Shown: one piece after another, positions 2,411 to 38,559 of the stretch | Numbering within the stretch: position 1 is the stretch's first letter | Layout: the number at the start of each line of letters is the position of its first letter | Assembly: GCA_040954595.2 (NCBI GenBank) | Contig: CM082583.2 | Coordinates: 3,915,060-3,979,059, forward strand | From: Balanoglossus misakiensis | Lineage: Eukaryota; Animalia; Hemichordata | DNA length: 64,000 bases | Direction of reading: 5' to 3' | The notes under the pieces: generated by a model | Databases searched by the model: none | Told to the model about the DNA's origin: nothing | Seen by the model: only the letters and a program-made list of their open reading frames with translations | Translations under genes and position numbers: made by a program

Positions 2411-5400
2411 ATGTATTCCCTGGCAAGTCTCGGCTTTATGTTGCTATATGCTGTTTATATTCCTATGTCGCAACAAGGTAAGTGTAGGGAAGACACAGGG
2501 ACTAGAACCTACCCTTAAACGATGTTTTGTTATTTTACGGTATTTCTGTGGCCTTTATCCTGTGTAATATAGACGTGTGCAGTTTAGGTAGATGTCATAT
2601 GGATTTTCTGTGCTAACATGGGATATTTTTTATATTGAAGCGATAATTTGACATTTTCTTTTTTTGATGATTTTTCATACAACATCTCAAGAAATTGCTC
2701 TTAAATTTATTGTGAATGTATACAGGCATGCATGTCTCTTAAATGCACATTACAATCATTGCACAGTTAACAATATCCGAATATTTTTTGTGGTGTTGAA
2801 ATTAATTTTGAGAATGCACTTATGTGATGGCTTTCATATTGTGTTTACCGGGTCCCACTTATATTCTTGTGACTTGCCAATATTATTGTAACCAACATAC
2901 TGTATACGGGAGCAATATTGCTAAAAATCCCTTGTCTGATTGCTTTGTGATTTGATTTTAGGGTCATCGGATTTCCCTCATTACCTTTTTGCCAAAATTG
3001 TCGTGGAAATATTAATTTTTGTACTTCTTCCTGATTTGTGGTCAAAAACTCAAAATGGCTTGCCGAAATTTTGTTTTAGGGTCCTTGGGTATTCGTACAG
3101 AGAGCAAACAAATCACTTCGTCAATCCCATGACCATAACATAAGCGAAGCAAATATATTTGCCTCAAAACGTTTGTAATAGTCTTCTCTCGGCTGACCTA
3201 AATATATGACCCTAACGATGCGTTAAGAGAGTGTTTCCTAGACTTGTCCATAAACCTCCAAAACATTACAACATTCAACGTCTCTTGAAATAATTGTACT
3301 GCTTACCAGTTGCTTTCCATCCACATTGCAAACTCTCAATATTGTGTTCCAACGTCATAGGTTTGTTTTATTCTATTTCTTTTTGTCAGAATGCGTAGTG
3401 AGACACTTCCTGAGAAATGGTGAGGCGGTTCGACTTAGTCATCCAAACTATACGTATGTTTACTTCTATGTTATGTGTACTTGGATAATGAAGAATGCCG
3501 ATGGTGGAATTATAAAGATCTGCTTCAGGGATTTCGAGTTTGAATCGCAAGGTGACTTCCTTATAGTCGGAGACGGCGATAACACTAAATCCAGTCAGAG
3601 GAACACATATATGTACAATGATAGCATCCCCGGCATCTTTGTATCGTCAGGAAATCAAGCTTGGATAGATTCGTCGTCGAGTCGAAGAAATAATGCACGA
3701 GGATTTCGTGTGACTGTAACTGCATTGGAAAGTGAGTATCAAGCGTTCCATTTCAATTATATCCCAATCCCAGGGGGATCGTGATCTCCCAAACCAAATA
3801 ATGACAGTGATGATGACGATTAGATATTAAAAAGAAAGAAAAATAAAAACATTTCGAACCCTACGTCGAATATTACCACTTCCGATGTTTGCTACATTTT
3901 GTAGGTGTATGTTCGGTGATGAAAACAAACGTTTGTGCATTATGATGCTGCCCCCTTTTAAAAGTAATGTTAAACCTAATTGAATCATTCTCCTCTACCC
4001 TAACCCTATAATCATGAATCGTTCTACCCCCACCCTAACCCTATAATCATGAATCGTTCTACCCCCACCCTAACCCTATAATCATGAATCGTTCTACCCC
4101 CACCCTGACCCTATAATCATGAATCGTTCTACCCCCACCCTGACCACAACCCCACCTGACAACAACATACAACATGGTCAACAACAACAGCGACAAAAAT
4201 CCCTATGTAAATACTACTATTAATTATGCAAATTTCAAATTAAAAATTGTCAATGATCTCCATAATGTTACGTCTACAAAGAAAACCTAAATAGGAGTCT
4301 TTTGATGAAAACAAGTCTCCTAACATATGTACCAAAGGTTTTCCTGGCTATCATTTATCTGAAAATCTGTTCCCGAGGCTTAATATGATACGTGTAGAAG
4401 ATGGTATACAAGCATGAGTGTTACAATAAAGTCACCCAATGATTTTTTGTTTCATATAAATATATGTACAAAGAAACCTACTCAATGTTGGCTTGAAGGT
4501 TACACCTACATTAAAATCTACTGGATTGAATGTCCGAAGATTTTCTGACATAAGCATAATGTCATGCGTAATTTTCTCACTTGTACAATATAAATATTCT
4601 TCATCAGTGACGTGCGTTAAAAGCCCAACATTCAGATATGCCCAGGGCACTATACTCGCTGCTATACTTTTGTACCATCATTTCTGTACATTTCTCCAAA
4701 AAACATTTTTCTACTTTGTCACAGAGATATTAAAGGGACAAGGTCTCTCTCTCACTGCCCTTGTTCCATTAATTATGTTTGATACAAGACACTGTTTATG
4801 TTAATGTACATGTGTGTATGTAGTGAATCAACATTCAACCACATACAACTTCCACCTCCCTTGTATTATATGAGAGTAAAAATATGCCCAAAATGAATAA
4901 ATGGTAGACACTGATTATTCATTTTGGCAAGTTTTTTCATTCTCACGTCTACAAGCGGGATGGTAGCAGTGTGTGATTCACTATATATCTACATGTACAT
5001 TAACATAAGTGGTGTCTTGTATCAAACATAATTAATGGAAAAAGGTCAGCAAGAGAGAGACTTTGTCCCTTTAATGATTATATTTGGTCTTGTTTGCATC
5101 GCATTTATCATGTAGGTGCTGCAATTCCTGTGGACGCATGTCCAACTACATCAGGTGTAAGTATTAAAACCAAACACGTGACAGTTGAAAGGAATTCTAA
5201 TTAAAATTGCAACAAGTGAGCTTTAGAACACGCTCCTCTGACGAGCGAATGCATGGGAGCGTTGTTCAAAGGAATATAGTTATTAACCACAATAAGTTAC
5301 CCTGCAAAGTTGAGATCAAGGCAATACATATTTGTCAATATATATCCGCGCGAAAGACGTGCGCCATGACATGGTCATTCGATGACTTAGACTTGCCCTG

Positions 5401-8400
5401 TCGTCATATATAAGCATACATGTATGTAGATTTCAGGTTAACGTATTTTTAAGGACTCTGGAAGTAAAATAAATTGGAATAAATTAGGAAATATACAGTG
5501 CACTGCAAAGGAGGGATGTTTTTACATCAGCAAAACACACGGGAGATGGTCCAATACACCATTAACAGTCCATATCAAACACACTGCACTGCATTGGTTA
5601 GATTCTGCTTTGCACACAAGGCATCTGCTGTTTAAAGAGAACGTGCATGTCACTGGCAAGAAAATCAAATTTATGTTTTAAACAGTAGGAATCCATACAG
5701 TGTCTGAATTCCCCCAAGTTCCCCCTAAAACCGACTGTGCGCACGCTAGTCTGTAATACCGTTATAAAATGCACATGGCACGGCCTAATATATAAATAAC
5801 AACTTTGAATTGGTGCGTGAGTAACCCGATGTGAAGTAACGGGCCAGCTATCGGTACATTACTGCATGTTTTCATCATTTGAGAATGGCTTGAAATTAAT
5901 GCATGTTAAAATTCACAAACTCGGACAAATATGTGTTGTGTATCTGTTCTAAAGTCAAAATGAACTACCTAATCCTTTATTGCGTCATTTCTTGACTCCG
6001 ATAGGCGCTTGGAAAGTTTAGTCAAGCATCTGACTTGATCGGGCGACTAGAAGATGCAAATCCGCCTTTAAGGGCAACCCAAGCATTGGCTAAAGGCAAG
6101 CGATTACACATTTCCGAGAAATAATAGACGATCCAGTTTGCGATGACCAGCCGTTGGAGACTTTGCAATTAACATATATTTGAACAGCACGTGTTAGTCC
6201 TTGGTCGAAGTGATGCCAGATCAATAATTAATTTATGAATAGCATTAATGTACCGTGTGGTTGTCTACCTCTTTGCTTACAGGCCAGGGAGGAAACGCTT
6301 TTTCAAATATATGCACGATATGGACTATATTTTAGAAAAGAAATTACTACTCATTCTGCTTTTCATGATAAAAGTTCAATTCTAAATCTTACAGAGATCC
6401 TGATACTTCTGGATGAAGGCATCGTGTTAATTCAGTCGCCGGTCAGTAATGAAACAAGAGACGAGTTGACCAAGTTCCTTCTAAACACAACCGATTCCCT
6501 CGCCAAGTCTGTTCTAAGCAAGGTGGAACCCGGCAGCGGGCCAGTTACCATGGATTCAGAATTCTTTCAATTGCATTTGGAAAGCGATTCTGTGGTGCAT
6601 CTTACAAACACCTCAATAATACTCCGAGGCGGTAATGGTGTGAAATTTCCACCGGCAGAGAAGATGTTCTCCAATTTAACTTCTGGAGCAATTGTTAACA
6701 GGATTGTAAGAGTCTTACCCTTGTTGTTCATCATAAATATGTTATTTCTTCCATCTTTGTTAATTACTTAATCACACTTTGTAAACACATGCCAATAAAG
6801 TTTATAATGTGTTATCGCCCATAGGTTAATGTTTTCAACAGAAGTTTGCTTCTTCCAGACTACAATGGAAGGAACACATTTTCAAGAAAATTTGTGTTGA
6901 GCTTGTCGTTCACTGACAGAGAAGGCAGAGAGTTAGAAGGTATTTATATCATCACAACGCGGTCATTTAATTGCCTTGTCTTAAAGAGGAACTTTGACCA
7001 ATTAGTTTTGTGCACGAAAGATTTCGTTTTCTATAATGATTTACATATTTTCTATTGACTCTTCCAGTGAAGGATACAAAAGAAGACATTGAAATCACGT
7101 TTGCAAGTGAAGCCCCAGAGTCAGAAACCGCCTCATTAATCGAAGCTGTGTACATTGAAGCCCGTGACGTCACATATTTTGGATTTAATGTCGAGGTAGG
7201 TGAATGGAATTAAAACTAGTTAAATTATGTGTGATGAGCTATTAATTATGTCTACTTCTTTGTGCTATCGGCGAGCCAATACCAACAGATTATAACAGAG
7301 GAAAGGAAACACGCGGGGAGTGGAGTTAAACACTTGCTCAAATAATTTATGTCCGTGTTCATATTTATCACAAAATTAATATTCATTCTATATTCTATGT
7401 CGCAGATAACATGGTTGTTACATCCAATTATCATTAAGTTTGAAAATTGCGAACCTCTGTACGGAAATACAACAGTGTACGTCTTCAATGAACTTACGGC
7501 TTACTCTGACAAATACGTTGGATACCAGTTCGCTGTTGATATGGAATTTGCAGGAGATTATTCCTCGGTGTTCATTCCAGAAAATTATTTCTTTAGAACT
7601 GGAGAGTATTATTTCACATTTACTGTTCCCCACAGTAAGTGTTCCTGTTTAATATTTACCTTTCACCTCACTTAAGTGTTGTACACACATATCGTTTAAA
7701 GCACATTTAATGCTGTATCGTCATGCATTATTTTGATTTGTTTGCAAGTTCAAACTTAACTAATTATATTGGAACCTATAGTATTATTTGTATCAGAACC
7801 TATTTATTTTAATTCACGTAGTAAGAAAGTCCGAACTTCTAGGCCAAAATGGGTCCACATTCTGGTATTAACAGTCGACGTGACCACCATGTCGAAAAGA
7901 ACACAGCTTCTTTGAGATTCATTAACTTTTTTTGTATTCTTTCGATTTTGTAGAGCAAGATATCCAGTTTGCATTCACTGTCATACTAACTACGTGTTAT
8001 TATCTGAACATCCAGACTGACAGTTGGAAGAGTGGCGGTTGCCAGGTATACACAATGGTTCCTCAAATGATAATTTTGATTTAGCAGAATCAAATTTGTT
8101 GAAACCTTACCCTAGTTTAACCACGGATACTCCAGCATAACCTTGATTTAACGTATCGTCTGGATACGACAAAACTGAAAGAGTATAGCAGGAGAAAATT
8201 GAGAACTTGGTTAATCTTTGTCATATTCGTCGCTCAGATTCAAATGGCAGATGAGGAATGTTCAGTTATGTTCGAATGTATTTGTCTGGAGATTCCTTGA
8301 TAGGCAGGATATGTTGCAATGTCCAAGGGGTTATTATCCCGATATTCTTTATATTTAGATAAACTCTTATCCATTTTACCACCATTGTTTGGTCCAAACC

Positions 8401-8827
8401 CATTGATTTCTATGGTAAAGATTGATGTCTAATATTAAAAAGGGAAATGCGTGCCTTATAGTCTACTGGCTATACCGACATATACTAGAGAGTTTCTGTG
8501 AAATATGCGCCTGTGATCATTTTGATGATAATGAAGTCAAAATGCACAATCCTGAAACACTTGCGAAATGGTTGGTAGCAATGATATCATTGCTCATAAA
8601 TATTTAAATATTTTTGCAACCGTTATCCCAATCAAATCAGTCTGAGCTTTAATTGTTTCTCGCATAGCAGAGTGGAAGTAAAGTTCTGGCTCGGGAGACT
8701 GAACCAATCCGTGCTTCTTTTAAATCTGCAGGTTTCACCATCATCAAACTTCACGTCCACTGTGTGCCTGTGTAACCACCTGACGACATTTGCATCCAGA
8801 AAGGCGACAACAATGATATTACCCTAG
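2411..8827 (+). CDS. Secreted CUB + polycystin-type GAIN/GPS domain protein, copy 1 (10 exons, 503 aa, no TM segment)
   Basis: Hand-spliced exons, all phase-compatible: 2411-2477 (MYSLASLGFMLLYAVYIPMSQQ, signal-peptide-like), 3390-3731 (CUB: C..SHPNY..CTW..I.F.DF..DFL.V.DG..RGFRV), 5116-5156, 6005-6095 (GC donor), 6395-6705, 6825-6939 (VLSLSFTDREGRELE), 7068-7195 (VKDTKEDIEITF), 7406-7634, 7954-8045 (CYYLNIQTDSWKSGGCQ), 8732-8827 (VSPSSNFTSTVCLCNHLTTFASRKATTMILP*). Total 1512 nt with no stop. The C..W...GC / C.CNHLT.FA pattern is the GPS motif of PKD1-like proteins and adhesion GPCRs. Confidence 0.85.
3997..4145. repeat. 35-bp minisatellite (CCCTAACCCTATAATCATGAATCGTTCTACCCCCA), about 4 units, intron 2 of copy 1
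   Basis: Direct tandem repeat read from the sequence; about 1.5 units in copy 2 (~12868-12915). Confidence 0.9.
4734..5070. mobile_element. ~340-bp foldback MITE with TTAA target duplication (Kolobok-like non-autonomous), family A
   Basis: TTAA|AGGGACAA...TTGTCCCT|TTAA with long internal inverted symmetry. Copy 3 has the empty site with a single TTAA (~24765). Confidence 0.85.
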
Positions 8828-10511
8828 AAAACGATTGCCAACATGCTAATCCAGGATGCATTGCGATTTCCAACATGGCGGCGAACCCACAAAGCCCTCT
8901 TCATTGAATGCAGACTGACCATATAAACAGAATTGGATTTTTATCATAGGAAACCGATGGCCAGAGTTAATCAACCATACTCAATTCCTCTTAACTATAT
9001 TCACACAAATCTTATTATAGACAATGTCCCTACAACTTCATTCAGAACCAACCATGCCAGAGAAAAACATCATCCCTCTTTTCTATGGAGTCTAACGTGA
9101 GTTCTAACATGCCATAAGTAATGTCTTAAAGATAACTTGAATTCTTTGTTTACCACAGATGTAAATCTTTATGATGCAAGTAAATGTATACAAAAGAAAA
9201 AATGTAATTACAGTGTAGTTTTTTTTTAAATTTAAATTTAAATACAATAATTATTATGTGGGTTTCCATGTATCTCGTGCTTATGAATGTTAGATGTCGA
9301 TGTCAAATTAAATCATTGTATTTACATATTTACACATTTAACTCAATTATACATTTAGTAATCTATTATTGTGAATTCTTGTATTTTTACAGTCACACAT
9401 TTACAAAAATATACCTCTTTTGTCGTCTGAAGTACTTTCGTTTTGAAATCTTTGTAAGATAAAATATTTGCATGCAATCCTTCTGTCAAAACCAACTTTG
9501 TCTGATTAATATGTGTCTGCAATGATTTAAGTGGTATTGTATTATCAAACGTAGATATTTGATGACAATTGATAACGAAATTCAGATAATTATATCTTAA
9601 AATACCTATATCGGACATTATTAAATGCTCAATCAAAAGCATGTTTTGTACTGCTCAGATGAAATGAATAATAAAAATACTACAGAAATAAATGCGAGTC
9701 TTTAATTGGTCCTTTTCAACCTTAATTAATCAGTGAAGTTTTTTTAAACATGTAGTACAACGTGGTAGATCGTGCACGTTCACTCTATGTATTGGATGCG
9801 ATGTCGATCGACATTCTGTATGCTCTGATGTTTATCCTGTTAGGCCTTACCCTCTGGTGTTGCTGACATTAATTATTTAAGCGCTATCTCTTTCAAAGTC
9901 AAATTTCCCCCGGCTATGTGTGTCGCTCGGTATAAGTGTGTCTTTCTTTTTCATCTTGCAGGCCTATTCCTCAGTTGTATAATAATCATAAACTCCGTGG
10001 GGAGTGTGATTCTTTCTTTAGGAGACGCCTTCAGTTCTCTTTGTGTTCTGACAGTTGGTAAACGCTATTTCAATGCCCCTCACCCTGTCTATAGAGTTTG
10101 AAAAGTTCAGTTTGATATTAAGTATTTATAAAAGTTTCCACTTCATGCTACGGAGCCAAATAATATAATTAGTTTATGATTTTTGAGTAATAAAATCGAC
10201 AGCTCATTGTACTAATTCGCATGTTTACTGTACATTCACGACAGTTTGGTATTTAAATTTAAAGTTGTACGTGTCATTGTATTTCAAATAACAAAATACT
10301 ATCACTTTTTCAAGTTAACTTTATAGCTGCAAATTTGCGGTACGGTATATAAACAGTGATTGATTTACCTTCTGAACTTGTTAAACGTGGGGGGGGGGGG
10401 GGGTTCATTTTTTGCGTGCAACATATGCTGTCTTTATACACTCTCATTTCTGCATCTCCCCTGCATCATTCACATGAATTCTCTGTTTTGAAAAGTTTTA
10501 ACAAAACTTAA

Positions 10512-11015
10512 AGGCACGTAAGCTGTAACTTTTGGGATAATTTTCATAATTTTTGTTTCAAACTGCACTACCATTAGTCTATGCAGATGAAGGCAGTGAA
10601 CTATACACAAGCATTATAAACCCTAAATATGAGTGCATATACAAGTTTTAACCAGATAAATAATAAAGCTTTGCTGCAAGCGATTATGGCCGCCACCGTG
10701 GGAAAATGCAAGAAACAATGAAAATGATGTATTTCAGGTTATGAAACTTCATAAACAAAACATGATCTCATCCACTTGAGCTCATGGAAGTAAATGTACA
10801 CCACTGAGACATCAGATTTTCATTTTTCATTGCAATATTGCTCTTTTTTTAAAATTGCTGGAATTTTCTTTTTTCTTTAATTTTTTGCCATTTTGTCATA
10901 AATAAATGTTGAGCTTGATATATTATCATGAAATATCATTTAATAGACATAATTAAAAGCATATATGAGATTATTTACAACTTTAATTTTTTATCCAGTT
11001 GCAGCTTACGTGCCT
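10512..11015. mobile_element. ~500-bp TTAA-targeted non-autonomous DNA transposon (Kolobok-like), family B
   Basis: TIRs AGGCACGTAAGCTG...CAGCTTACGTGCCT flanked by TTAA. The empty site AAAACTTAATTCAC is present in copy 3 (~21365). Confidence 0.9.
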
Positions 11016-11331
11016 TTAATTCACTTACTAAGGTTACTCTTTTCGAAACGTCTGACATCAACCTACATAATGATGATTGTATTTCATTTATTTTTAATAA
11101 CTACAGTTTTTCTTTTGTATAAATTCACTTTCTATACATGTACATGTCTTTCATCAGACATTGGGGAATAATTGGGAATATGTAGTTTCATGCAGGTCAT
11201 ATTTCAATTCAACTGAAAATCTGCTATTCACAAGTGTCCTTGTTCTTGTCTCTGTGGCAACACTGGTATCGATAAAAGTGTAAGTTTCTAACTCTCCAGA
11301 TCACAACGAGACTTGATAGGAAACGTTGAAT

Positions 11332-14300
11332 ATGTATTCCCTGGCAAGTCTCGGCTTTATGTTGCTATATGCTGTTTATATTGCTATGTCGCAACAAGGT
11401 AAGTGTAGGGAAGACACAGGGACTAAAGCCTACCCTTAAACGATGTTATGTTATTTTACGGAATTTCTGTGGCCTTTATCCTGTGTAATATAGACGTGTG
11501 CAGTTTAGGTAGATGTCATTTAGATTGTCTGTGCTAATATAAGATATTTTTTATATTGTAGCGATAATTTGACATTTTCTTTTTTTGATGATTTTTCATA
11601 CAACATCTCAAGAAATTGCTCTTAAATTTATTGTGAATGTATACAGGCATGCATGTCTCTTAAATGCACATTACAATCATTGCACAGTTAACAATATCCG
11701 AATATTTTTTGTGGTGTTGAAATTAATTTTGAGAATGCACTTATGTGATGGCTTTCATATTGTGTTTACCGGGTCCCACTTATGTTCTTGTGACTTGCCA
11801 ATATTATTGTAACCAACATACTGTATATGTGAGCAATATTGCCAAAAATCCCTTGTCTGATTGCTTTGTGATTTGATTTTAGGGTCATCGGATTTCCTTC
11901 ATTACCATTTGCCAAAATTGTCGTGGAAATATTAATTTTGTACTTGTGGACAATTCTTCCTGATTTGTGGTCAAAAACTCAAAATGGCTTGCCGAAATTT
12001 TGTTTTAGGGTCCTGGGGTATTCGTACAGAGAGCAAACAAATCACTACGTCAATCCCATGACCATAACATAAGCGAAGCAAATATATTTGCCTCAAAACG
12101 TTTGTAATAGTCTTCTCTCGGCTGACCTAAATATAGGACCCTAACGATGCGTTAACATTACAACATTCAACGTCTCTTGAAATAATTGTACTGCTTACCA
12201 GTTGCTTTCCATCCACATTGCAAACTCTCAATATTGTGTTCCAACCTCATACGTCTGTTGTATTATATTTCTTTTTGTCAGAATGCGTAGTGAGACTCTT
12301 CCTGAGAAATGGTGAGGCGGCTCGGCTTAGTCCTCCAAACTTTACGTATGATCACGACTTTTTTGCGTGTACTTGGATTATGAAGAATGCCGATGGTGGA
12401 ATTATAAAGATCTGCTTCAATGATTTCGAGTTTGCCTCGCAAGATGACTTCCTTATAGTCGGAGACGGCGAAAAAACTAAATCCAGTCAGGTGAACACAT
12501 ATTTGTACAATGATAGCATCCCGGGCATCTTTGTATCGTCAGGAAGACAAGCTTGTATACGTTCGCCGCCGATTCGAAGAAATAAGGCACGAGGATTTCG
12601 TGTGACTGCAACTGCATTGGAAAGTGAGTATAAAGGGTTCCATTTCAATTATATCCCAATCCCAGGGGGATCGTGATCTCCCAAACCACATAATGACAGT
12701 GATGATGACGATTAGATATTAAAAAGAAAGAAAAATAAAAACATTTTGAACTCCACGCCGAATATTACCACGTCTGATGTATGTTCAGTGATGAAAACAA
12801 ACGTTTGTTCATTATGATGCTTCTCCCCTTAAATAGTAATGTTAAACCTAATTGAATCATTCTCCTCTACCCTAACCCTATAATCATGAATCGTTCTACC
12901 CCCACCCTAACCACAACCCCACCTGGCAACAACATACAACATGGTCAACAACAACAGCCACAAAAATCCCTCTGTAAATACTACTATTAATTATGCAAAT
13001 TTCAAATTAAAAATTGCCAATGATCTCCCTAATGTTACGACTACAAAGAAAACCTAAATAGGTGTCTTTTAATGAAAACAAGTCTCCTAACATATGTACC
13101 AAAGGTTTTCCTGGCTATCATTTATCTGAAAATATGTTCCCGAAGCTTAATATGATACGTGTAGAGGGTGGTATACAATGGTAATTGCAAACACACATGC
13201 TTGCGTGAGTGTTATAATAAAGTCACCCAATTACTGTTTTTAGGTCCCATTGGTATGTACCATGGGACCTTATGGGATCGGTTGCGTCTGTATGTATGTA
13301 TGGATGGATGTATGAATGGATGTATGTCTGTATGTACGTCCACATCAAAAACTTGAAAACCGCTGCGCGTATGACCTCGATATTTGGTGTGTAGATGAAG
13401 GCAGGGCTGTAGATGGGAGTTTGTTCAAATGAAGTTGTCATTGCCAAAAATATGCAAATTAGCTGGGAAAATGTGAAATTGGTCAAAACTCAAAAACTCA
13501 ACAACAACTGGTCATATTGATTTGAAAATTGGTATGCATGTACCTTATGTCAACCTCATACAGTCCTGTATGTTTTTAGCTAATATTATTGATTTCCTAT
13601 TTTTTATGCATTTTTTTGTATTTTTCCATGTTATTGGTAAAAAGTCTTCATTACTAATTCATTCCTGAAAGTGATGGGATTACTTCTTTCAAATTTAGTA
13701 TGAAGCTTCCTAATGGTTGTCTGAGTAACCATAGTTTTGTTCAAATTGTTGCAAAATTCGCATATTTATAATTTTGAGCAATATTTGCCATTTTTGGTCA
13801 AATTTTTTTCTCTTTAAAACCGCATGCCAGATTGCTTTGCAATTTGGTAGGCATGTTCGTAGGGGTAACCTAAGTAATATGTTGTAAAAAATGTGATATT
13901 TTCATAAATGTGTTATCGGGGAAACTTTTGCAATTTTTGTCAAAAATTGTTTTCTCTGAAACCGCTTGTCATATTGCATTGAACTTTGGCAGCATGTTCC
14001 TTGTAGTGATTGAAGTAAGATATTGTACAATTTTGGTGATATTTGCATATTTGTGTTTTTGCCACTTTTGAACAAATATTTTTTGTGAAACTGCTTGTTG
14101 GGTTGCTTTGACATTTGTTTTTTCTCTGATTGCTTTGAAATTTAGGATATAATTTGATAATACATACATGTATATTTGCAACTTTTAATTAATTCTGATA
14201 CCAGAAATATTCAATATTTAGCGAGTTTTTTTGTAAGTTTCTTTGTTTTTGGTTAGCAAATCTTCTCCTAAACCAATTGTCCAGTTTTTAAAGTTACTGT

Positions 14301-17300
14301 TTACAAGGAGTTGTTACCCCCAACTTAGACATGTTTACATAACTTTAATAAGCCAGCTGTTACAGAGACCACGGGCTATTAAATGTTTAATTACCAGTGG
14401 CAGGTCCGTGTGTGTGTGTCTGTCTGTCTGTCTGTTCCAGGGCTGACAGGATGAAGTTGCTTCCTATGTGTTTGTACAGACAATTTTTGGTCAATTTTTT
14501 TTCTAGCACCACTTGTAAGACTGCCATGACACATGACAGTTTATTGGGCATGTTCCTTGTTAATTTGTTTACATTCCATATTTCTGTATCGTAAGATCAT
14601 ATCTGCTTGCAATGTCACCTGTAATTTTTTTCTGGTGTGTCACTGTTTCCGCATAATCCTCAAATGGGACCACAGTGTCCTAGACGCTATTTTTTATATA
14701 AATTTATGTACAAAGAAACCTACTCAACGTTGGCTTGAAGGTTACACCTACATTAAAATCTACTGGATTGAATGGCCGAAGATTTTCTGACATAAGCATA
14801 ATGTCATGCGTACTTTTCTCACTTGTACAATATAAATATTCTTCATCAGTGACGTGCGTTAAAAGCCCAACATTCAGATATGCCCAGGGCACTATACTCG
14901 CTGCTATACTTTTGTACCGTCATTTCTGTACATTTCTACTCAAAACATTTTTCTACTTTGTCACGGAGATATTAAAGGGACAAGGTCTCTCTCTCATTAA
15001 AGGGACAAGGTCTCTCTCTCACTGCCCTTGTTCCATTAATTATGTTTGATACAATGTAGTGAATCAACATTCAACCACATACAACTTCCACCTCCCTTGT
15101 ATTATATGAGAGTAAAAACTTGCCCAAAATGAATAAATGGTCGAGACTGATTATTCATTTTGGCAAGTTTTTTCATTCTCATGTCTACAAGCGGGATGGT
15201 AGCAGTGTGTGGTTCACTATATATCTACATGTACATTAACATAAGTGGTGTCTTGTATCAAACACAATTAATGGAAAAAGGTCAGCAAGAGAGAGACTTT
15301 GTCCCTTTAATGATTATATTTGGTCTTGTTTGCATCGTATTTATCATGTAGGTGCTGCAATTCCTGTGGACGCATGTCCAACTACATCAGGTGTAAGTAT
15401 TAAAACCAAACACGTGACAGTTGAAAGGAATTCTAATCAAAATTGCAACAAGTGAGCTTTAGAACACGCTCCTCTGACGAGCGAATGCATGGGAGCGTGG
15501 TTCAAAGGAATATAGTTATTAACCACAATAAGTTACCCTACAAAGTTGAGATCAAGGCAATACATATTTGTCAATATATATCCGCGCGAAAGACGTGCGC
15601 CATGACATGGTCATTCGATGACTTAGACTTGCCCTGTCGTCATATATAAGCATATATGTAGATTTCAGGTTAACGTATTTTAAGGACTCTGGAAGTAAAA
15701 CAAAATTGGAATAAATTAGGAAATATACAGTGCACTGCAAGGGAGGGATTTTTTTACATCAGCAAAACACACGGGATATGGTCCAATACACCATCAACAG
15801 TCCATATCAAACACACTGCACTGCATTGGTTAGATTCTGCTTTGCACACAAGGCAACTGCTGTTTAAAGAGAACGTGCATGTCACTGGCAAGAAAATCAA
15901 ATTTATGTTTTAAACAGTAGGAATCCATACAGTGTCTGAATTCCCCCAAGTTCCCCCTAAAACCGGCTGTGCGCACGCTAGTCTGTAATACCGTTATAAA
16001 ATGCACATGGCACGGCCTAATATATAAATAACAACTTTGAATTGGTGCGTGAGTAACCCGATGTGAAGAAACGGGCCAGCTATCGGTACATTACTGCATG
16101 TTTTCATCATTTGAGAATGGCTTGAAATTAATGCATGTAAAAATTCACAAACTCTGAAAAATATGTGTTGTGTATCTGTTCTAAAGTCAAAATGAACTAC
16201 TTAATCCTTTATTGCGTTATTTCTGGACTCCGATAGGCGCTTGGAAAGTTTAGTCAAGCATCTGACTTGACCGGGCGACTAGAAGATGCAAATCCGCCTT
16301 TAAGGGCAACCCAAGCATTGGCTGAAGGCAAGTGATTACACATTTCTGAGAAAAAGTATAGACGTTCTAGTTTGCGATGACCAGCCGTTGGAGACTTTGC
16401 AATTAACATATATTTGAGCACCACGTGTTAGTCCTTGGTCGAAGTGATGCCAGATCAATAATTAATTTATGAATAGTATTAATGTACCGTGTGGTTGTCT
16501 ACCTCTTTCCTTACAAGCCACGGGAGGAAACGCTTTTTCAAATATATGGACTATATTTTAGAAGGGAAATTGTATACTACTCATTCTGCTTTTCATGATA
16601 AAGGTTCAATTTCAAATCTTACAGAGATCCTGACACTTCTGGATGAAGGCATCGTGTTAATTCAGTCGCCGGTCAGTAATGAAACAAGAGACGAGTTGAC
16701 CAAGTTCCTTCTAAACACAACCGATTCCCTCGCGAAGTCTGTTCTACGCGGGATGAAACCCGGCAGAGGGCAAGCTACCATTGATTCAGAATTCTTTCAA
16801 TTGCATTTGGAAAGCGATTCTGTGGTGCATCTTACAAACACCTCAATAATACTCCGAGGCGGTAATGGTGTGAAATTTCCACCGGCAGAGAAGATGTTCT
16901 CTAATTTAACCTCTGGAGCAATTGTTAACAGGATTGTAAGAGTCTTACCCTTGTTGTTCATTATTTTATTTCTTCCATTTTTTCTACTTATAATCAGACT
17001 TTGTAAACACATGCCAATGAAGTTTATAATATATTATCGCCCATAGGTTAGTGTTTTTAACAGAAGTTTGCTTCTTCAAGACGACAATGGAAGGAACACA
17101 TTTTCAAGAAAATTTGTGCTGAGCTTGTCATTCACTGACAGAGAAGGCAGAGAGTTAGAAGGTATTTATATCATCACTGTAATATATTTTAATCATTTAT
17201 ATCGAAATGAGGCCGGAATTGTAGCAATAGGCTGTTTGTTGTTACCAAATATTAAATGCTTGTCATAGAAAACAATGTTCATCCAAATACCCGATCCAAC

Positions 17301-19220
17301 ACAACGCGGTCATTTAATTGCCTTGTCATAAAGAGGAGCTTCCACCAATCAGTTTTGTGCACGAACGATTTCGTTTTCTATATGATTAACATCTGCATAA
17401 ACGTTATTTTCTATTCACTCATCCAGTGAAGGATACAAAAGAAGACATTGAAATCACGTTTGCAACTGAAGCCCCCGATTCAGAAACCGCCTCATTAATC
17501 GAAGCTGTGTACATTGAAGCCCGTGACGTCACATATTTTGGATTTAATGTCGAGGTAGGTGAATGGAATTAAAACTAGTTAAATCAAGTGTGATGAGCTA
17601 TTAATTATGTATACTGCTTTGTGCTATCGGCGAGCCAATACCAACAGATTATAACAGAGGAAAGGAAACACGCGGGGAGTGGAGTTAAACACTTGCTCAA
17701 ATAATTTATTTCCGTGTTCATATTTATCACAAAATTAATGTTCATTCTATATTCTATGTCGCAGATAACATGGTTGTTCCATCCAATTATCATTAAGTTT
17801 GAAAATTGCGAACCTCTGTACGGAAATACAACAGTGTACGTCTTCAATGAACTTACGGCTTACTCTGACAAATACGTTGGATACCAGTTCACTGTTGATA
17901 TGGAATTTGCAGGAGATTATTCCTCAGTGTTCATTCCAGAAAATTATTTCTTTAGAACTGGAGAGTATTATTTCACATTTACTTTTCCCCACAGTAAGTG
18001 TTCCTGTTTAATATTTACCTTACACCTCACTTAAGTGTTGTACACACACGTCGTTTAAAGCACATTTAATGCTGTATCGTCATGCATTATTTTGATTTGT
18101 TTGCAAGTTCAAACTTAACTAATTATATTGGAACCTATAGTATTATTTGTATCAGAACCTATTTATTTTAACTCACGTAGTAAGAAAGTCCGAACTTCTA
18201 GGCCAAAATGGGTCCACATTCTGGTATTAACAGTCGACGTGACCACCATGTCGAAAAGAACACATCTTCTTTGAGATTCATTAACTTTTTTGCATTCTTT
18301 CGATTTTGTAGAGCAAGATATCCAGTTTACATTCACTGTCATACTAACTACGTGTTATTATCTGAATATCCAGACTGACAGTTGGAAGAGTGACGGTTGC
18401 CAGGTATACACAATGGTTCCTCAAAAGATAATTTTGATTTAGCAGAATCAAATTTGTTGAAACGTAACCCTAGTTTAACCACGGATACTCCAGCATAACC
18501 TTGATTTAATGTATCGTCTGGATACGACAAAACTGAAAGAGTATAGCAGGAGAAAATTGAGAACTTGGTTAATCTTTGTCGTACTCGTCGCTCAGATTCA
18601 AATGGCAGATGAGGAATGTTCAGTTTATGTTCGAATGTATTTGTCTGGAGATTCATTGATAGGCAGGATATGTTGCAATGTCCAAGGGGTTATTATCCCG
18701 ATATTCTTTATATTTAGAAAAAACTCTTATCCCTTTCACCACCATGGTTTGGTCCAAACCCATTGATTTCTATGGTAAAGATTGATGTCTAATATTAAAA
18801 AGGGAAATGCGTGCCTTATAGTCTACTGGCTAGAAGAGCAATATAATACCGACATATACTAGAAAGTTTCTGTGAAATAGGCGCCTGTGATCATTTTGAT
18901 GATAATGAAGTCAAAATGCACAATACTGAAACACTTGCGAAATGGTTGGTAGGTAATTAAATTAGCTTTTTCCAATGATATCATTGCTCATAAATATTTA
19001 AATATTTTTGCAACAGTTTCCCATTCAAATCAGTCTGAGCTTTAATTGTTTCTCGCATAGCAGAGTGGAAGTAAAGTTCTGGCTCGGGAGACTGAACCAA
19101 TCCGTGCTTCTTTTAAATCTGCAGGTTTCACCATCATCAAACTTCACGTCCACTGTGTGCCTGTGTAACCACTTGACGACATTTGCATCCAGAAAGGCGA
19201 CAACAATGATATTACCCTAG
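11332..19220 (+). CDS. Secreted CUB + GAIN/GPS protein, copy 2 (10 exons, 503 aa)
   Basis: Exons 11332-11398, 12282-12623, 15352-15392, 16237-16327, 16625-16935, 17047-17161, 17427-17554, 17765-17993, 18312-18403, 19125-19220. Exon lengths are identical to copy 1, splice sites are intact, the frame is open and it ends CNHLTTFASRKATTMILP*. Confidence 0.85.
13238..14690 (+). mobile_element. ~1.45-kb Helentron/HINE (DINE-1-like) non-autonomous element, copy 2 only
   Basis: Absent from copies 1 and 3. It has a 5' stem-loop GGTCCCAT..ATGGGACC followed by a (TATG/GATG) microsatellite, a 3' subterminal ATGGGACC plus a small hairpin AGTGTC-TAGACGCT, and is inserted in a T-run with no clear TSD. The class assignment rests on architecture only. 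Confidence 0.65.
14976..15306. mobile_element. Family A MITE in copy 2, with tandem duplication of the left terminus
   Basis: Same site as the element at 4734. TTAAAGGGACAAGGTCTCTCTCTCA occurs twice in tandem (14972-15021). Confidence 0.85.
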
Positions 19221-20806
19221 AAAACGATTGCCAACATGCTAATCCAGGATGCACTGCGATTTCCAACATGGCGGCGAACCCACAAAGCCCTCTTCATTGA
19301 ATGCAGACTGACCATATAAACAGAATTGCTTTTTTATCATAGGAATCCGATGGATTGGCCATTAATAGGCCTCCAGAGTTAATCAACCATACTCAATTCC
19401 TCTTTACTATATTCACACAAATCTTATTATAGACAATGTCCCTACAACTTCATTCAGAACCAACCATGCCAGAGAAAAACATCATCACTCTTTCTATGGA
19501 GTCTAACGTGAGTTCTAACATGCCATAAGTAATGTCTTAAAGATAACTTGAATTCTTTGTTTACCACAGATGTAAATCTTTATGATGCAAGTAAATGTAT
19601 ACAAAAGAAAAAATGTAATTAGGTTTTTTTTTTAATTTAAATTTAAATACAGAATTATTATGTGGGTTTCCATGTATCTGGTGCTTGTGAATGTTAGATG
19701 TCGATGTCAAATTAAATCAATGTATTTACACATTTAACTCAATTATACTTTTAGTAATCTATTATTGTGAATTCTTGTATTTTAACAGTCACACATTTAG
19801 AAACATCTACCCCTTTTGTTGTTTGACGTAATTTTGTTTTGAAATCTTTGTAAGATATAATATTTGCATGCAATCCTTCTGTCAAAACCAACTTTGTCTG
19901 ATCAATATGTGTCTGAAATGATTTAAGTGGTATTGGATTATCAAACGTAGATATTTGACGACAATTGATAACGAAATTAAGATAATTATATCTTAAAATA
20001 CCCATCGAACATTTATTAAATGCTGAATCAAAAACATGTTTTGTACTGCTCAGATGAAATGAATAAAATACTACAAAAATAAATGCGAGTCTTTAATCAA
20101 TCCTTTTCTACCTTAATTAATCAGTTAAGTTTTTCAATTAATATAAAGTACAACGTGGAAGATCGTGCACGTTCACTCTATGTATTGGATGCGATGTCGA
20201 TGGACATTCTGTATGCTCTGATGTTTATCCTGTTAGGCCTTACCCTCTGGTGTTGCTGACATTAATTATTTAATCGCTATCTCTTTCAAAGTAAAAATGT
20301 CCTCCGGCTCGGTGTGTCCTTAGAACCTTTAAATATTCCATCGCTCGGGATAAGTGTGCACGTGTCTTTCCTTTTCATCTTGTAGGCCTATTCCTCAGTT
20401 GTATAATAATCATAAACTCCGTGGGGAGTGTGATTCTTTCTTAAGGAGACGCCTTCAGTTCTCTTTGTGTTCTGACAGTTTGTAAACGCTATTTCAATGC
20501 CCCTCACCCTGTCTCTAGAGTTTGAAAAGTTCAGTTTGAAATTAAGTATTTATAAAAGTTTCCACTTCATGCTACGGAGCCAAATAATATTAATATTTTA
20601 TGATTTTTGAGCAATAAAATTGACAACTCATTGTATTAAATAGCATGTTTACTGTACATTCACGACAGTTTGGTATTTAAAGTTGTACGTGTCGTTGTAT
20701 TTCGAATAACAAAATATTATCACTTTTTTCAAGTTAACTTTACAGCTGCAAAATTGCGGTACGGTATATAAACAGTGATTGATTTCATACCTTCTGAACT
20801 CGTTAA

Positions 20807-21228
20807 ACCCCGGTGCGGAAAGTACCGGGGTTCGGATTAACGTGTGTTTGTCTTGTTGTTTATTGACTGTGTAATTGAGCTCTTGGACATAGAAAATAAT
20901 TGAACACTTTACACCTCTACGCGATTGACAGCTGTTTGAATGGCGGGGTTGTTGTTTCCCAGGGACGCTTCTGAAAAGCACTGAAACCAGATTTCTGCCA
21001 AAATCATCGTTGTTTCAAAAGCTCGTGTACTTTTTCGTCGATAACTTTATTTTGTGTGTGTTTATAAAGCCAACTACTGTCGTTGTGTGGTGTAATTCTT
21101 TATGCTTGGACCTGTTTGGGCGGATTTTCATAGAGCCAAGATCGTTGGTGTTGTCTATTGTCAGTCAAACGGCATTAAGATTAATTCGCCACTGATTTGG
21201 GGGGGTCTTTTATACCCCGCACCAAGGT
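20807..21228. mobile_element. ~420-bp TTAA-flanked MITE, copy 3 only
   Basis: TTAA|ACCCCGGTGCGG...CCGCACCAAGGT|TTAA. The empty site GTTAAACGTGGGG is at 1821 and 10380. Confidence 0.8.
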
Positions 21229-21797
21229 TTAAACGTGGGGGGGGGGGGATTTCATTTTCTGCGTGCAACTTATCTGCTGTCTTTATATACTCTCATTTCT
21301 GTATCTCCCCTGCCCTTTTTTCGTCGCCATTCACATGAATTCTTTGTTTTGAAAAGTTTTAACAAAACTTAATTCACTTAATAACGAAACGTCTGACATC
21401 ACTTTTCTGGTCTTTTTTTGAAGTCCGTATATACATGTACATTGTATCTTTTTTGTGTGTGTTTTGTGAATTGGCTGTACTGTGCTCTTTTGTAACTGTT
21501 CGTCCTTGCAACTGACAATACAAACACCGTTTATTTGACCTAAACGTAAGCTAAAGAATATGAATGGGTATGATCTAAATTATTTAGTACATTATTTCTA
21601 TACATGTACATGTCTTTCATCAGACATTGGGGAATATTTGGGAATATGTACTTTCATGCATGTCATATTTCAATTCAACTGAACATCTGCTATTCACAAG
21701 TGTCCTTGTTCTTGTCTCTGTGGCAACACTGGTATCGATAAAAGTGTAAGTTTCTAACTCTCTAGATCACAACGAGACTTGATCGGAAACATTGAAT

Positions 21798-24700
21798 ATG
21801 TATTCCCTGGCAAGTCTCGGCTTTATGTTGATATATGCTGTTTATATTGCTATGTCGCAACAAGGTAAGTGTAGAGATGACACAGGGACTAAAGTCTACC
21901 CTCAACGATGTTATTTGTGGTGTTAAAATTAATTTGAGAATGTACTTATGTGATGGCTTTCATATTGTGTTTACCGGGTCCCAGTTATGTTCTTGTGACT
22001 TGCTAATATTATTGTAACCAACTTACTGTATATGGGAGCAATATTGCGCAAACATTTCCAGAAATCCCTTGTCTGATTGCATTGTGATTTGATTTTAGGG
22101 TCATCGGATATCCTTCATTACCATTTGCCAAAATAGTCGTGGAAATATTAATTTTGTACTTGCGGCCAATTCTTCCTGATTTGTGGTCAAAACTCGAAAT
22201 GGCTTGCCGAAATTTTGTTTAAGGTCCTGGCGTATTGCACTGTTTACCAGTTGCTTTCCATTTACATTGCAAACTCTCAAAATTGTGTTCCAACCTCAAA
22301 ATTCTGTTGTATTATATTTATTTTGTCAGAATGCGAAAAAAGACACTCCCTGAGAAATGGTGAGGCAGTTCGACTTAGTCCTCCAAACTACCCGTATGAT
22401 TACGACAACAATCTTGAGTGTACTTGGATCATGAACAACACCGATGGCGGAATTATAAAGATCTGCTTCAGGGATTTCGACTTGGCCTCGCAAGATGACT
22501 TCATTACAGTCGGAGGCGGCGAAAAAACAAGTCCCAGTCAAGTAAAAACATATTTGTACGATGATAGTATCCCCGGCATCTATATATCGTCAAGAAATCA
22601 AGCTTGGATATACTTGTCGACAAGTCGAAATACTGCACGAGGATTTCGTGTGACTGCAACTGCATTGCAAAGTGAGTACCAAATTTTCCATTTCAATTAT
22701 CTCCCAATCCCAGAGGGATCTCGATCTCCCAACCAAAATAACAACAGGATTATGATGACGATTAGATATTACAAAGAAAGAAAAATAAAAACATTTCGAA
22801 CCCTACTTCCGATGTTTGCTACATTTTGTAGGTGTATGTTCGGTGATGAAAAAAAAAGTTTGTTCATTATGATGCGTCGCCCCTTTAATAGTAATGTTAA
22901 ACCTAATTGAATCATTCTCCCCTACCCTAACCCTATAATCATGAATCGTTCTACCCCCACCCTAACCCTATAATCATGAATCGTTTTACCCCACCCTAAC
23001 CCTATAATCATGAATCGTTCTACCCCCACCCTAACCCTATAATCATCAATCGTTCTACCCCCACCCTAACCCTATAATCATGAATCGTTCTACCCCACCC
23101 TAACCCTATAATCATGAATCGTTCTACCCCCACCCTGACCACAACCCCACCTGAGAACAACATACAACATGGTCAACAACAACAGCCACAAAAATCCCTA
23201 TGTAAATACTATGACAGCACTTCATGACCTCTGCGCGCGATCTGTGCAATATGGATGTTATTTTCATGAGTGATAAGGTGTATTGTTCCGAGTATACGGA
23301 TCGCGCGCAGAGGACATGAAGTTCTGTTATTATTGCATATGTTTCCCTAGATTTGACGAAAATCAAAGTTTCGATCGTGGCGTATTGATTTTCACTACAG
23401 TGATGCGCCAAAGGCTTTGCAACCCAGAGAAGGCCGCTCATTGGCCAAAATGAAGCAACCTTTGTTATGCAAAGAAGGGTCATGTGGGGTCATTCCATCA
23501 GTGGGTTACCTGAGGTCGTGAGATCGCAGCGATACATTTTGAAACACTGGCGATAGCGAGAGATTTTCGTAATTTTCGAGGTTCCAAAACACACTGACAA
23601 CTAAATGTTCTGTTATTCTGACGATAGGTGGAAAGGATAAGAAAACAACGTGCCAGAATGTTGAAAAATCCGCATGTTTCGGCGATCATGTTGGCTCATT
23701 TCATCAGTGGTTTAGCTCAGGTCGCAAGATAGCATCGGCAATATTTGAGAAACTGGCGATAGCGAGGGATTTTCCGAGGTTCCCAAACATACTGCCAATG
23801 AATGTTTTGTTATTCTGACAAAATTTGGGAAGGATAAGACAATGACGTCTCCGAATGTTGAAAATTCCCCACGTTTCGGCGATCATACTCCAGCTCTGCC
23901 GACGGCGTTCAATGTTTACAAACAAAACGTAGTTCGGCTTGTTTTTACTCATTTGCATATGGGTTGTGAAAAATACCACTTTGTCACGCGCACAACTAAA
24001 ACAACATTCGACATTTTTGCGACTGAAATAAAACTTTTGTTATATCCTCCGGAGGTTTATATGAACTCCAAGTGATTGTGTAACAGAACGAGGGTTAAAC
24101 TTTGACAGATATACGATCGATTGAAGGGGAAATGGGGGATCTTATTCTTCTGGATGCTAATTTGCATATCAGCTTGCAAAAAAAAAAAAAACAGTATTAT
24201 TATTGCACGGGCAGCTTGGAATACTGTAGTACATATGCAATACTACTATTAATTATGCAAATTTCAAATTAAAAATTGTCAATGATCTCCATAATGTCAC
24301 GTCTACAAAGACAACCTAAATAGGTGTATTTTGATGAAAACAAGTCTCCTCACATATGTAGCAAATGTTTTCCTGGCTATCATTTATCTGTTCCCGAGGC
24401 TTAATATGATACGTGTAGAGGGTGGTATACAAGGGTAATTGCAAACATACATGCTTGCATGAGTGTTATAATAAAGTCACCCAATGATTGTTTGTTTTTT
24501 ATAAATATATGTACAAAAAACTACTCAACGTTGGCATGAATGTTAACTCTACTGGATTGAATGACCAAAGATTTTCTGACATACATGTAAGTGTACGTTT
24601 GCGTACTTTTCTCACTTGTACAATATAAATATTCTTCATCAGTGACGTGCGTTAAAAGCCCAACATTCAGATATGCCCAGGGCACTATACTCGCTGCTAT

Positions 24701-27700: not shown

Positions 27701-28011
27701 TCAAAATGCACAATACTGAAACACTTGCGAAATGCTTGGTAGCTAATTAAATTAGCTTATTCCAATGATATCGTTGCTCATAAATATTTAAATATTTTTG
27801 CAACAGTTTCCCATTCAAATCAGTCTGAGCTTTAATTGTTTCTCGCATAGCAGAGTGGAAGTAAAAGTTCTGGCTTGGGAGACTGAACCAATCCGTGCTT
27901 CTTTATAATCTGCAGGTTTCACCATCATCAAACTTCACCTCCACTGTGTGCCTGTGTAACCACCTGACGGCATTTGCATCCAGAAAGGCGACAACAATGA
28001 TATTACCCTAG
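21798..28011 (+). CDS. Secreted CUB + GAIN/GPS protein, copy 3 (10 exons, 503 aa)
   Basis: Exons 21798-21864, 22330-22671, 24811-24851, 25370-25460, 25759-26069, 26180-26294, 26423-26550, 26757-26985, 27301-27392, 27916-28011. This copy has the most canonical CUB motif (LSPPNYPYDYDNNLECTW) and ends CNHLTAFASRKATTMILP*. Confidence 0.85.
22925..23140. repeat. Same 35-bp minisatellite, about 6 units, intron 2 of copy 3
   Basis: Direct tandem repeat; unit number differs among paralogues. Confidence 0.9.
23212..24240. mobile_element. ~1.03-kb non-autonomous insertion with a large 5' hairpin and an internal ~205-bp duplication, copy 3 only
   Basis: Absent in copies 1 and 2. AATACTA lies on both sides. 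There is a hairpin ACTTCATGACCTCTGCGCGCGATC...GATCGCGCGCAGAGGACATGAAGT, and an internal TATTGCATATGT pairs with the terminal ACATATGCAATA. Confidence 0.7.
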
Positions 28012-29279
28012 AAAACGATTGCCAACATGCTAATCCAGGATGCATTGCGATTTCCAACATGGCGGCGAACCCACAAAGCCCTCTTCATTGAATGCAAAGT
28101 GACCATATAAACAGAATTGCTTTTTTATCATAGGAATCCGATGAATTGGCCATTAATTGGCCTCCAGAGTTATCAACCATGCTCAATTCCTCTGACGTAC
28201 TTCAACTGCGCAATTGGGATGGGGGGGGGGGGGACGCCTCTTTGTCTATTAAATTGTGACGTTGTTACAATTTTAGAGATAACGCGTTGCTGGCATGAAA
28301 GAAATACAATGTTGCCAGTTTGCCGTTTGTTGCTGGTATTTCGAATTCTGTAATAACTATATTCACACAAATCTTATTATAGACAATGTCCCAACAACTT
28401 CATTCAGAACCAACCATGCCAGAGCTAGAGAAAAACATCATCACTCTTTTCTTTGGAGTCTAACGTGAGTTCTAACATGCTATAAATAATGTCTTAAAGA
28501 TAACTTGAATTCTTTGTTCACTAAACATGCATGCAAATCTTTATGATTCAAGTAAATTTATACAAAAGAAAAAATGAAAATGTTTTTTTTTTTTAATTTA
28601 AATTGAAATACAGTAATTATTATGTGGGTTTCCATGTATCTCGTGCTTGTGAATGTTAGATGTCGATGTCAAATTAAATCAATGTATTTACATATTGAAA
28701 CATTTAACTCAATTACACTAACCTTTAAGTAATCTATTATTGTGTATTCTTGTATTTTTACAGTCACACATTTACATAAAGCTACCCCTTTTGATGTGTG
28801 ACGTATTTTAAAAAAAAATCTTTATAAGATAAAATATTTGCATGCAATCCTTCTGATTAATTGTCTGATTAATAAGTGTCTGAAATGATTTAAGAGGTAT
28901 TGTATTATTAAACGTGAATAACAATGTAAAACTAATTGTATGCACCATTTTTAAAACGTCGCCGTTAATTCCGAGAGGTCGTTACTGGTGTGACGTTGCT
29001 GCACGCCACGGTGGATTTGATCATTGGAAATTATGATTTTATAACTGTATGAGCCATGTTATAATTGCAATGTTTTCATTTTACAAATCGTGGTTAATTT
29101 GTCAAAGCTAGGTCCTGTATATTTGTAGGAACTTTTGTGCATTTCGTCTTATCAAAGAAAAATTGGATGAGAATTGAAAACGAAATAGAAGGCTTTGAGA
29201 TAATTATATCTAAAAATACCTATTGGACATTTATTAATTGCTTAATCAAAAACACATTTTGTAATGCTTAGATGAAATG

Positions 29280-29285
29280 AATAAA
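29280..29285 (+). terminator. Putative polyadenylation signal AATAAA of CUB-GAIN copy 3 (homologous sites at 1082, 9670, 20062)
   Basis: AATAAA sits at the same position in all four 3'-UTR-like blocks, and homology of the last block ends about 15 nt downstream of it. Confidence 0.45.
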
Positions 29286-38342: not shown

Positions 38343-38559
38343 GCTGAAAAAGTGCATAATGAGTAGGTAATTATAGAAGCAGCTCTCCAGTTGAGCGAAA
38401 ACCCGCAGTATCATGACAGATCGCAACTAAAAGCAGAATACATGGGCAGAAATAAAGGACATACAATGTGTATACGAATGTTATTGTTCCGTTCTGTCAA
38501 ACGGGCATAAATATGCAACCGTGATATGTGTTAAGGCTTGGTAAAAATTTATAACAATT

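Follow-up and report, generated by a model that had tools for sequence, protein, structure and literature searches.

The first 29 kb of a 64,000-nucleotide stretch of the genome of the acorn worm Balanoglossus misakiensis (hereafter the window; contig CM082583.2, positions 3,915,060 to 3,979,059 of assembly GCA_040954595.2) contain three tandem gene copies, each joining a single CUB domain, the head, to a GAIN domain. The overall reading proposed here, to which we assign a probability of roughly 0.58, is that these are secreted-type CUB-GAIN genes whose heads are kept different by ligand selection while gene conversion evens out the rest of the protein, the scaffold. This reading builds on the gene structure, the absence of a membrane segment, a peak of divergence on the CUB exon, the mosaic ancestry of the copies and the existence of a family with interchangeable heads, all of which are observed directly. 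The most robust signal is the divergence peak and not the ratio of non-synonymous to synonymous divergence (dN/dS).

The copies lie on the plus strand at 2411-8827 (copy 1), 11332-19220 (copy 2) and 21798-28011 (copy 3), in units of about 9-10 kb. Each comprises nine matching coding exons with GT-AG introns throughout, adding up to 1419 nt and an intact open reading frame (ORF) of 472 amino acids. The encoded protein begins with a hydrophobic N-terminus, a predicted signal peptide with a hydropathy peak of 2.15-2.24 (first coding exon 2411-2477, 11332-11398 and 21798-21864 in copies 1 to 3), followed by the CUB exon (3390-3731, 12282-12623 and 22330-22671), a 13-codon linker exon (5116-5154, 15352-15390 and 24811-24849) and the six GAIN exons 4-9 (6395-8827, 16625-19220 and 25759-28011), which end in a GPS motif. 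The CUB exons of copies 1 and 2 lie exactly where a first-pass annotation of the window had placed them, and that of copy 3 lies within the range it gave. Between copies 1 and 2 there is no coding indel where the introns predict 7.8 (P = 4e-4), and between copies 1 and 3 there are two, both in frame, against 19 expected; the reading frames are therefore being kept.

Divergence peak and ancestry of the copies

Variation along the unit is concentrated on the head. The CUB exon is 20.6% variable compared with 7.6% elsewhere in the unit, and 70 of its 339 three-way alignment columns vary, against 9-42 in 15 other intervals. At the protein level, the head differs from the rest in all three pairs of copies (25/114 versus 20/358, 36/113 versus 23/358 and 35/113 versus 15/358 residues; P = 2e-6 to 2e-13). 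For copies 1 and 2, non-synonymous divergence in the CUB exon is 0.120, while the flanking introns reach 0.035 (P = 4e-8) and the synonymous sites pooled with the nearest 150 nt reach 0.061 (P = 0.005). A single interval exceeds the CUB exon for this pair (40 versus 35 differences); it is located beyond the gene, where the array ends. On either side of the exon, divergence drops over a distance of about 100-300 nt.

An exon-sized peak of this kind in converted duplicates is a published mark of selection that keeps copies different, as in red/green opsins, where exon 5 of the tandem duplicates is more diverged than its flanking introns (PMC3924837). The CUB exon resembles that case, although functional sites and orthologues are known for the opsins and the present comparison covers three paralogues from one assembly. 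The ancestry of the copies is mosaic: around exon 5, copies 1 and 3 are identical; around exon 7, copy 2 is the nearest to copy 3; and between introns 1 and 3 it is copies 1 and 2 that group together. This clustering of ancestry along the unit is significant after thinning (P = 0.002). Judged from these sequence patterns, the peak probably reflects divergent selection resisting gene conversion.

Part of the contrast between head and scaffold arises because gene conversion has left the scaffold younger than the head. In copy 3, the CUB exon shows a synonymous divergence of 0.17-0.20 and its nearest 150 nt one of 0.15-0.19, as high as the non-synonymous value of 0.16, whereas GAIN synonymous divergence is only 0.04-0.07. 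This makes the head older than the scaffold and gives it the greater neutral depth (P = 0.002). The introns of copies 2 and 3 diverge by 0.059 and 0.078; pairwise figures inflated by misaligned insertions were set aside. The depth of the copy 3 head would also be expected if that exon, or patches of the heads of copies 1 and 2, had been imported from a distant paralogue elsewhere, the peak then recording the age of the donor. The equally high flanks, a dN/dS of 0.66 on the copy 3 branch and the habit of the family of swapping heads all fit such an import, as does a block at 279-820, upstream of copy 1, that hints at a further related unit. Import alone, however, leaves unaccounted the codons private to copies 1 and 2 (9:0 and 8:2 non-synonymous to synonymous); there is no donor within the window, and an imported head could equally be one that selection has retained. 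We regard import as an improbable explanation of the whole pattern.

It is also conceivable that copies 1 and 2 are alleles misassembled in tandem, in which case the signal would be one of balancing selection or plain polymorphism. Their introns differ by 3.2%, in addition to insertion differences, which lies in the range of alleles of polymorphic marine invertebrates. Nevertheless, there are three copies rather than two, the window contains no N, spacers and genes follow one another in one continuous repeat structure, and some stretches place copy 1, others copy 2, closest to copy 3. Misassembly is accordingly very hard to credit.

Tests of selection and structure of the CUB head

Between copies 1 and 2, the CUB exons differ at 35 nucleotides, which alter 25 of the 114 codons non-synonymously and three synonymously (CGA/CGG, ATA/ATT and CCC/CCG). 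A 76-codon GAIN exon differs at three residues in the same pair and the GPS exon at none of 31. These counts are exactly those of the first-pass annotation, and the loop sequences it quoted as variable match the window as written. By counting, the CUB dN/dS of the pair is 2.84 (P = 0.05); a codon model gives 3.0 (P = 0.04), or 2.9 (P = 0.054) when other frequencies are used. The branches leading to copies 1 and 2 have a ratio of 3.3 (P = 0.025). Diversifying selection on the CUB exon is thus moderately supported by sequence comparison, at a borderline level for one pair; the support disappears when doublet mutations are allowed or the third copy is added.

Several results weigh against selection as the source of this excess. 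About three quarters of random coding changes are non-synonymous, and random placement of the 35 changes gives roughly 25:6.5, with a probability of 0.07-0.18 over six settings of obtaining three or fewer synonymous changes. The 25:3 count is therefore compatible with neutrality. Pairs that include copy 3 have a CUB dN/dS of 0.94 and 0.80, with non-synonymous divergence equal to local neutral divergence (P = 0.6). The earlier description of the selection signature as strong was, on these figures, overstated. With all three copies the ratio is 1.2 (P = 0.54); a ratio that failed to exceed 1 once sequences were added had been named as evidence against selection, and this outcome goes part of the way there. 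Site models on the three sequences, including the M7 versus M8 comparison that had been proposed as a check, are not significant (M1a/M2a P = 0.19, M7/M8 P = 0.19, M8a/M8 P = 0.07). Adjacent differences make up 14 of the 35 in the CUB exon compared with 35 of 208 in non-coding DNA, and doublet mutations are a known cause of false positives in selection tests (10.1101/165969). Allowing for them lowers the CUB dN/dS to 2.0-2.7 (P = 0.08-0.26; pair estimate 2.0, P = 0.26). The codon models are our own Python implementations rather than codeml, and with three sequences their power is low in either direction. In addition, the choice of pair, branches and patches was made after inspection of the data. 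The scaffold adds to the difficulty. Its dN/dS is 0.58, and the shortfall from 1 is not significant (P = 0.09); outside the CUB exon the copy 1 branch has a ratio of 2.8, versus 0.26 and 0.39 on the other branches. Codons private to copy 1 number 13:2 non-synonymous to synonymous outside the CUB exon and 22:2 over the whole gene. The picture of a variable head on a constant scaffold consequently holds for the contrast between the two, which recurs in a second pair of genes described below, but not for constancy: 20 of 358 residues outside the CUB exon differ between copies 1 and 2, nine of them in the first GAIN exon. That exon has a second variable patch at 6517-6552, a run of 12 neighbouring positions of which 8 are not the same in all copies.

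The assignment of the head to the CUB fold is supported by Pfam (PF00431; 39.4, 26.2 and 50.7 bits for copies 1, 2 and 3 against a cut-off of 21.4), copy 3 being the most canonical. Both cysteines of the first disulfide pair are present in all copies and the second pair is absent. Within the Ca2+-binding subset of CUB domains, the site consists of three acidic residues and a tyrosine (PMC6372009). By alignment to cubilin, no copy has the full site: the L9 aspartate is missing in all three, the L5 glutamate occurs in copy 1 only and the tyrosine is replaced in copy 2. Three non-canonical cysteines occur in all copies at residues 67, 145 and 349 (exons 3390-3731, 5116-5154 and 7406-7634 in copy 1), with one extra in copy 2, and possibly form inter-domain or inter-chain bonds.

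An AlphaFold model of the CUB domain was unusable (predicted local distance difference test, pLDDT, 38), and loops and core were set by the cubilin alignment, the core list being our own. On this basis, differences between copies 1 and 2 affect 12 of 31 positions in odd-numbered loops, 3 of 22 in even-numbered loops and 10 of 58 in strands (odd loops versus the rest, 12/31 versus 13/80, P = 0.013). The L3 loop of copy 1 (3440-3475) has ten non-synonymous and no synonymous changes relative to copy 2, and a patch on strand 9 and loop L9 (3662-3694) has seven and none. In solved CUB complexes the ligand site is formed by the odd loops (PMC8051872, PMC6372009). They are also the most variable CUB loops in general (PMC8051872), which diminishes the weight of this enrichment, as does its lack of significance for the copy 3 pairs (P = 0.08 and 0.25). 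Six unsupervised tests of the previously reported clustering of changes are not significant (best P = 0.07). Core positions vary at 6 of 21 against 41 of 93 elsewhere (P = 0.14). Variable sites in the buried core had been named earlier as evidence against selection; the core is not significantly spared, and five of its six changes are conservative.

Relaxed constraint offers another explanation for these patterns. The CUB exon would drift after duplication, multi-base mutations would inflate dN, and insertions together with a tandem repeat would suppress conversion locally, leaving an island of neutral divergence. The three-copy ratio, the neutral simulation and the doublet model all agree with it, and CUB consensus residues are missing from copies 1 and 2, which have lost them and have the lower Pfam scores, a further point against the selection reading. 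The intron after the CUB exon carries large insertions and a 35-bp tandem repeat, at 3981-4145 (4.7 copies), 12853-12912 (fewer than two) and 22908-23140 (6.7 copies), and indels too can end conversion (PMC3924837). On the other hand, divergence falls off on both sides of the exon, both disulfide cysteines are kept, the core changes are mostly conservative, no copy has a frameshift or stop, and the head-centred pattern recurs in an unrelated head. Relaxed constraint is for these reasons the less likely account, but it deserves to be taken seriously next to selection on the head.

A GAIN domain without a membrane part

All three copies carry the GPS cleavage motif, which takes the form His-Leu/Ile-Ser/Thr, as His-Leu-Thr in their last coding exon (8732-8827, 19125-19220 and 27916-28011; Pfam GPS 25.6 bits, cut-off 22.5) and reach a stop codon 14 residues after His-Leu. 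No 19-residue segment of the three proteins exceeds a hydropathy of 1.5, so that no transmembrane segment is found in them. The stretch from the GPS motif to the stop lacks a GT donor. PLAT or polycystin-like downstream motifs are absent from the three ORFs, six-frame scans and Pfam scans of 25 relatives. A REJ domain has no match in exons or relatives, and every residue beyond the linker can be aligned to the GAIN model. Putative frames and hydrophobic segments past the stop were considered and rejected, as they are not conserved among the copies and such segments are common in the window (0.47 per kb). It is very probable that the three proteins have no membrane anchor, and secretion is predicted from their sequence.

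A GAIN domain combines a helical subdomain A with a beta-sandwich subdomain B. The fold is best seen in a relative, P0015, which shares 46% identity with the window proteins along 319 amino acids. Its model (pLDDT 81) matches the GAIN domains of latrophilin (Z = 16.9, root-mean-square deviation 3.4, 225 residues aligned) and GPR126 (Z = 16.4), and the only GAIN structures among its matches were those of adhesion GPCRs; by descent the domain may come from an adhesion-GPCR or a PKD1-like gene. The window proteins accordingly contain a GAIN domain, the modelled fold being that of P0015. Residues about 202-318 of the model form a beta-sandwich insert of about 115 amino acids that weakly matches jelly-roll domains (Z up to 7.9); most of it corresponds to the exon at 7406-7634. 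The last seven residues of the model have a pLDDT below 50, and a two-copy complex prediction scored 0.00, from which no verdict was drawn. The alignment begins at P0015 residue 38, and the helical subdomain is therefore shorter in the window proteins. After the cleavage site these proteins have TTFASRK, in which TxF is kept and the hydrophobic end of the tethered agonist consensus TxFAVLM (PMC12716839) is replaced by SRK.

A HMMER search with the first GAIN exon returned 27 proteins, of which 24 are RefSeq proteins of Ptychodera flava on ten genomic scaffolds; the other three are an unnamed fragment and two unrelated repeat proteins. RefSeq names some of the relatives "polycystin-1-like" or "sperm receptor for egg jelly-like". 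Neither a CUB nor a membrane domain was found in any of the 25 relatives scanned with Pfam. Instead, 14 of them have HYR repeats, and their heads include pentraxin (P0010), C-type lectin (P0013, P0025), F5/8 (P0021, P0029), SRCR (P0019) and PAN (P0006) domains. The window proteins form their own clade. Of the 24, eleven extend as far as the GPS cysteines, and each of these ends 0-23 residues later in unrelated tails with no hydrophobic segment; the cleavage triad is kept in seven and lost in four. A recent deletion of transmembrane exons in the array was considered and dropped, since the relatives end at the same point. The other 13 are incomplete gene models from an imperfect annotation, which also counts against the reading proposed here. 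In ten of them similarity stops within four residues of an exon junction of the window genes, which shows that the exon structure is shared and, again, that the annotation is imperfect. Further searches with exons of the window genes returned little. A word-index protein search, in whose collection the window's own proteins were not found, gave no relative for the first GAIN exon and no exon-length alignment for the CUB exon, only two distant tolloid-like proteins for the latter. A sequence search of the PDB with the first GAIN exon gave chance matches only, and an Atlas search no usable match.

The window genes might nonetheless code for membrane receptors, akin to adhesion GPCRs or polycystins, if their transmembrane exons had escaped annotation or were located beyond the window. 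GAIN domains are otherwise known from membrane proteins (PMC13197933); one weak GC donor follows the GPS motif, and many gene models of the family are incomplete. Against this, the in-frame stop is present in all three copies, the next copy follows directly downstream, and all eleven relatives that reach the GPS end alike, including the four without a cleavage triad. A missed membrane part is a slim prospect.

The contrast between head and scaffold recurs independently in P0021 and P0031 (XP_070545129 and XP_070545131), two relatives whose genomic scaffolds have the same length. Their F5/8 heads differ at 29 of 143 residues, their HYR repeats at 8 of 245 and their GAIN domains at 22 of 364, that is, 20% in the head against 30 of 609 (5%) elsewhere (P = 4e-8), a protein comparison that speaks to head-centred divergence and not to dN/dS. 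Thirteen of the 29 head differences fall in 32 residues, presumably the loops of complementarity-determining regions 1 and 2 (CDR1/CDR2) by the numbering we assume. The CDR1/CDR2 loops vary in eel F-type lectins (PMC5712786).

Proposed role, comparisons and neighbouring features

By analogy with solved complexes, the proteins, predicted to be secreted, would bind a ligand through the odd loops L3, L5 and L9 of the CUB head, with the GAIN domain serving as a constant stalk or docking module. Exchange between tandem copies by gene conversion would even out the scaffold. Conversion tracts that cross the head would be selected against because different heads are useful, and the branches leading to copies 1 and 2 would be those on which selection favours additional amino-acid change. 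The role may be the recognition of non-self or of mucus surfaces. The head domains of the relatives are typical of pattern recognition. Since lectin, pentraxin and SRCR heads occur among the relatives and hemichordates have a highly secretory epidermis (PMC13554239), an immune or mucus role is, by analogy, marginally favoured and seems likelier than gamete recognition, for which F-type lectins and REJ proteins offer precedents.

Among known systems, SpREJ/suREJ proteins are similar in having a GPS-bearing ectodomain and a recognition head, the lectin domains of suREJ being reported under positive selection (Mah et al. 2005, as cited in PMC1934368). They differ in having a REJ domain and 1-11 transmembrane segments (PMC1934368), whereas the window proteins have no REJ, PLAT or membrane segment and a CUB head. 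A supposed presence of CUB domains in some SpREJ proteins was not borne out by PMC1934368, from which the term is absent; PMC13672419 supplies background on REJ only. The adhesion GPCRs ADGRG6/GPR126 and latrophilin share the GAIN fold, the His-Leu-Thr motif and heads varied by domain shuffling, and ADGRG6/GPR126 has the architecture CUB-pentraxin-GAIN followed by seven transmembrane segments (7TM). Unlike them, the window proteins have no 7TM region after the GAIN domain, carry TTFASRK in place of TxFAVLM, and have a shortened helical subdomain and the beta-sandwich insert. Adhesion-GPCR forms that act through a GAIN ectodomain without 7TM do exist (ectodomain-only LAT-1 variants, a Cirl isoform with one transmembrane segment, shed fragments; PMC13197933), but they are splice or cleavage products of receptor genes, while here whole genes of a multigene family have no membrane part. 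F-type lectin arrays such as eel agglutinins and oyster bindin vary in binding-site loops and have immune and gamete roles; in contrast to the present family, the account in PMC5712786 describes no GAIN module in them.

On its own, the selection pattern has precedents and is only moderately supported; the novelty lies in the gene family. A full-text literature search, in which subscription papers and supplements lay outside the scope, found no description of a gene family that ends at the GPS without a membrane part, so a GAIN family of this type is apparently undescribed, although gene-family tables in hemichordate genome papers may list it. The reason for the strong conservation and self-cutting of GAIN domains is described as an unsettled question (PMC13197933). 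Whole genes that keep the GAIN fold but no membrane part, some retaining the cleavage triad and others lacking it, would make it possible to test directly what a GAIN domain does besides signalling. The swappable, fast-changing heads make the family a candidate diversified recognition system of hemichordates, whose immune cells have been described only lately (PMC13554239). A wider proposal, speculative and rather unlikely as a whole, is that acorn worms possess an undescribed family dedicated to recognition, made up of secreted modular proteins. A GAIN domain free of any membrane part would be their constant region, while selection swaps and diversifies the CUB, lectin, pentraxin or SRCR heads. 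The GAIN domain would dock the loaded protein on a membrane partner or into mucus, so that the receptor is split in two, one half soluble and variable, the other anchored and shared.

Turning to the surroundings of the array, a non-coding block follows each stop codon on the plus strand and ends near AATAAA (8872-9690, 19265-20080 and 28056-29298); it is likely the 3' untranslated region and the boundary of the repeat unit. Its fourth occurrence, at 279-1100, lies upstream of copy 1. The sequence before it is unrelated and has an acceptor-like site near 270, and this block may mark where another related unit, situated outside the window, ends. A short frame with a hydrophobic end precedes each start codon by about 1.2 kb (1163-1279, with copies near 9750 and 20140), hydrophobic stretches of this sort being frequent in the window. 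An element of about 350 bp with inverted ends is present in copies 1 and 2 (4716-5077 and 14994-15311) and not in copy 3. The same element occurs at 55317-55686 and 57105-57457, within introns of a TTC21B/IFT139-like multi-exon gene on the plus strand (about 43000-62300; Pfam ARM_TT21 matches). Beside the array, two tandem collagen-C1q genes on the minus strand (32394-33746 and 36647-38367, about 83% identical in DNA) represent another secreted recognition-type duplicate. An isolated Deltex C-terminal domain fragment at 39893-40135 on the plus strand is probably a gene relic, and a DEAD/DEAH helicase fragment at 29817-30332, also on the plus strand and set between 60-nt inverted repeats (29607-29666 and 30344-30404), is possibly the relic of a transposon.

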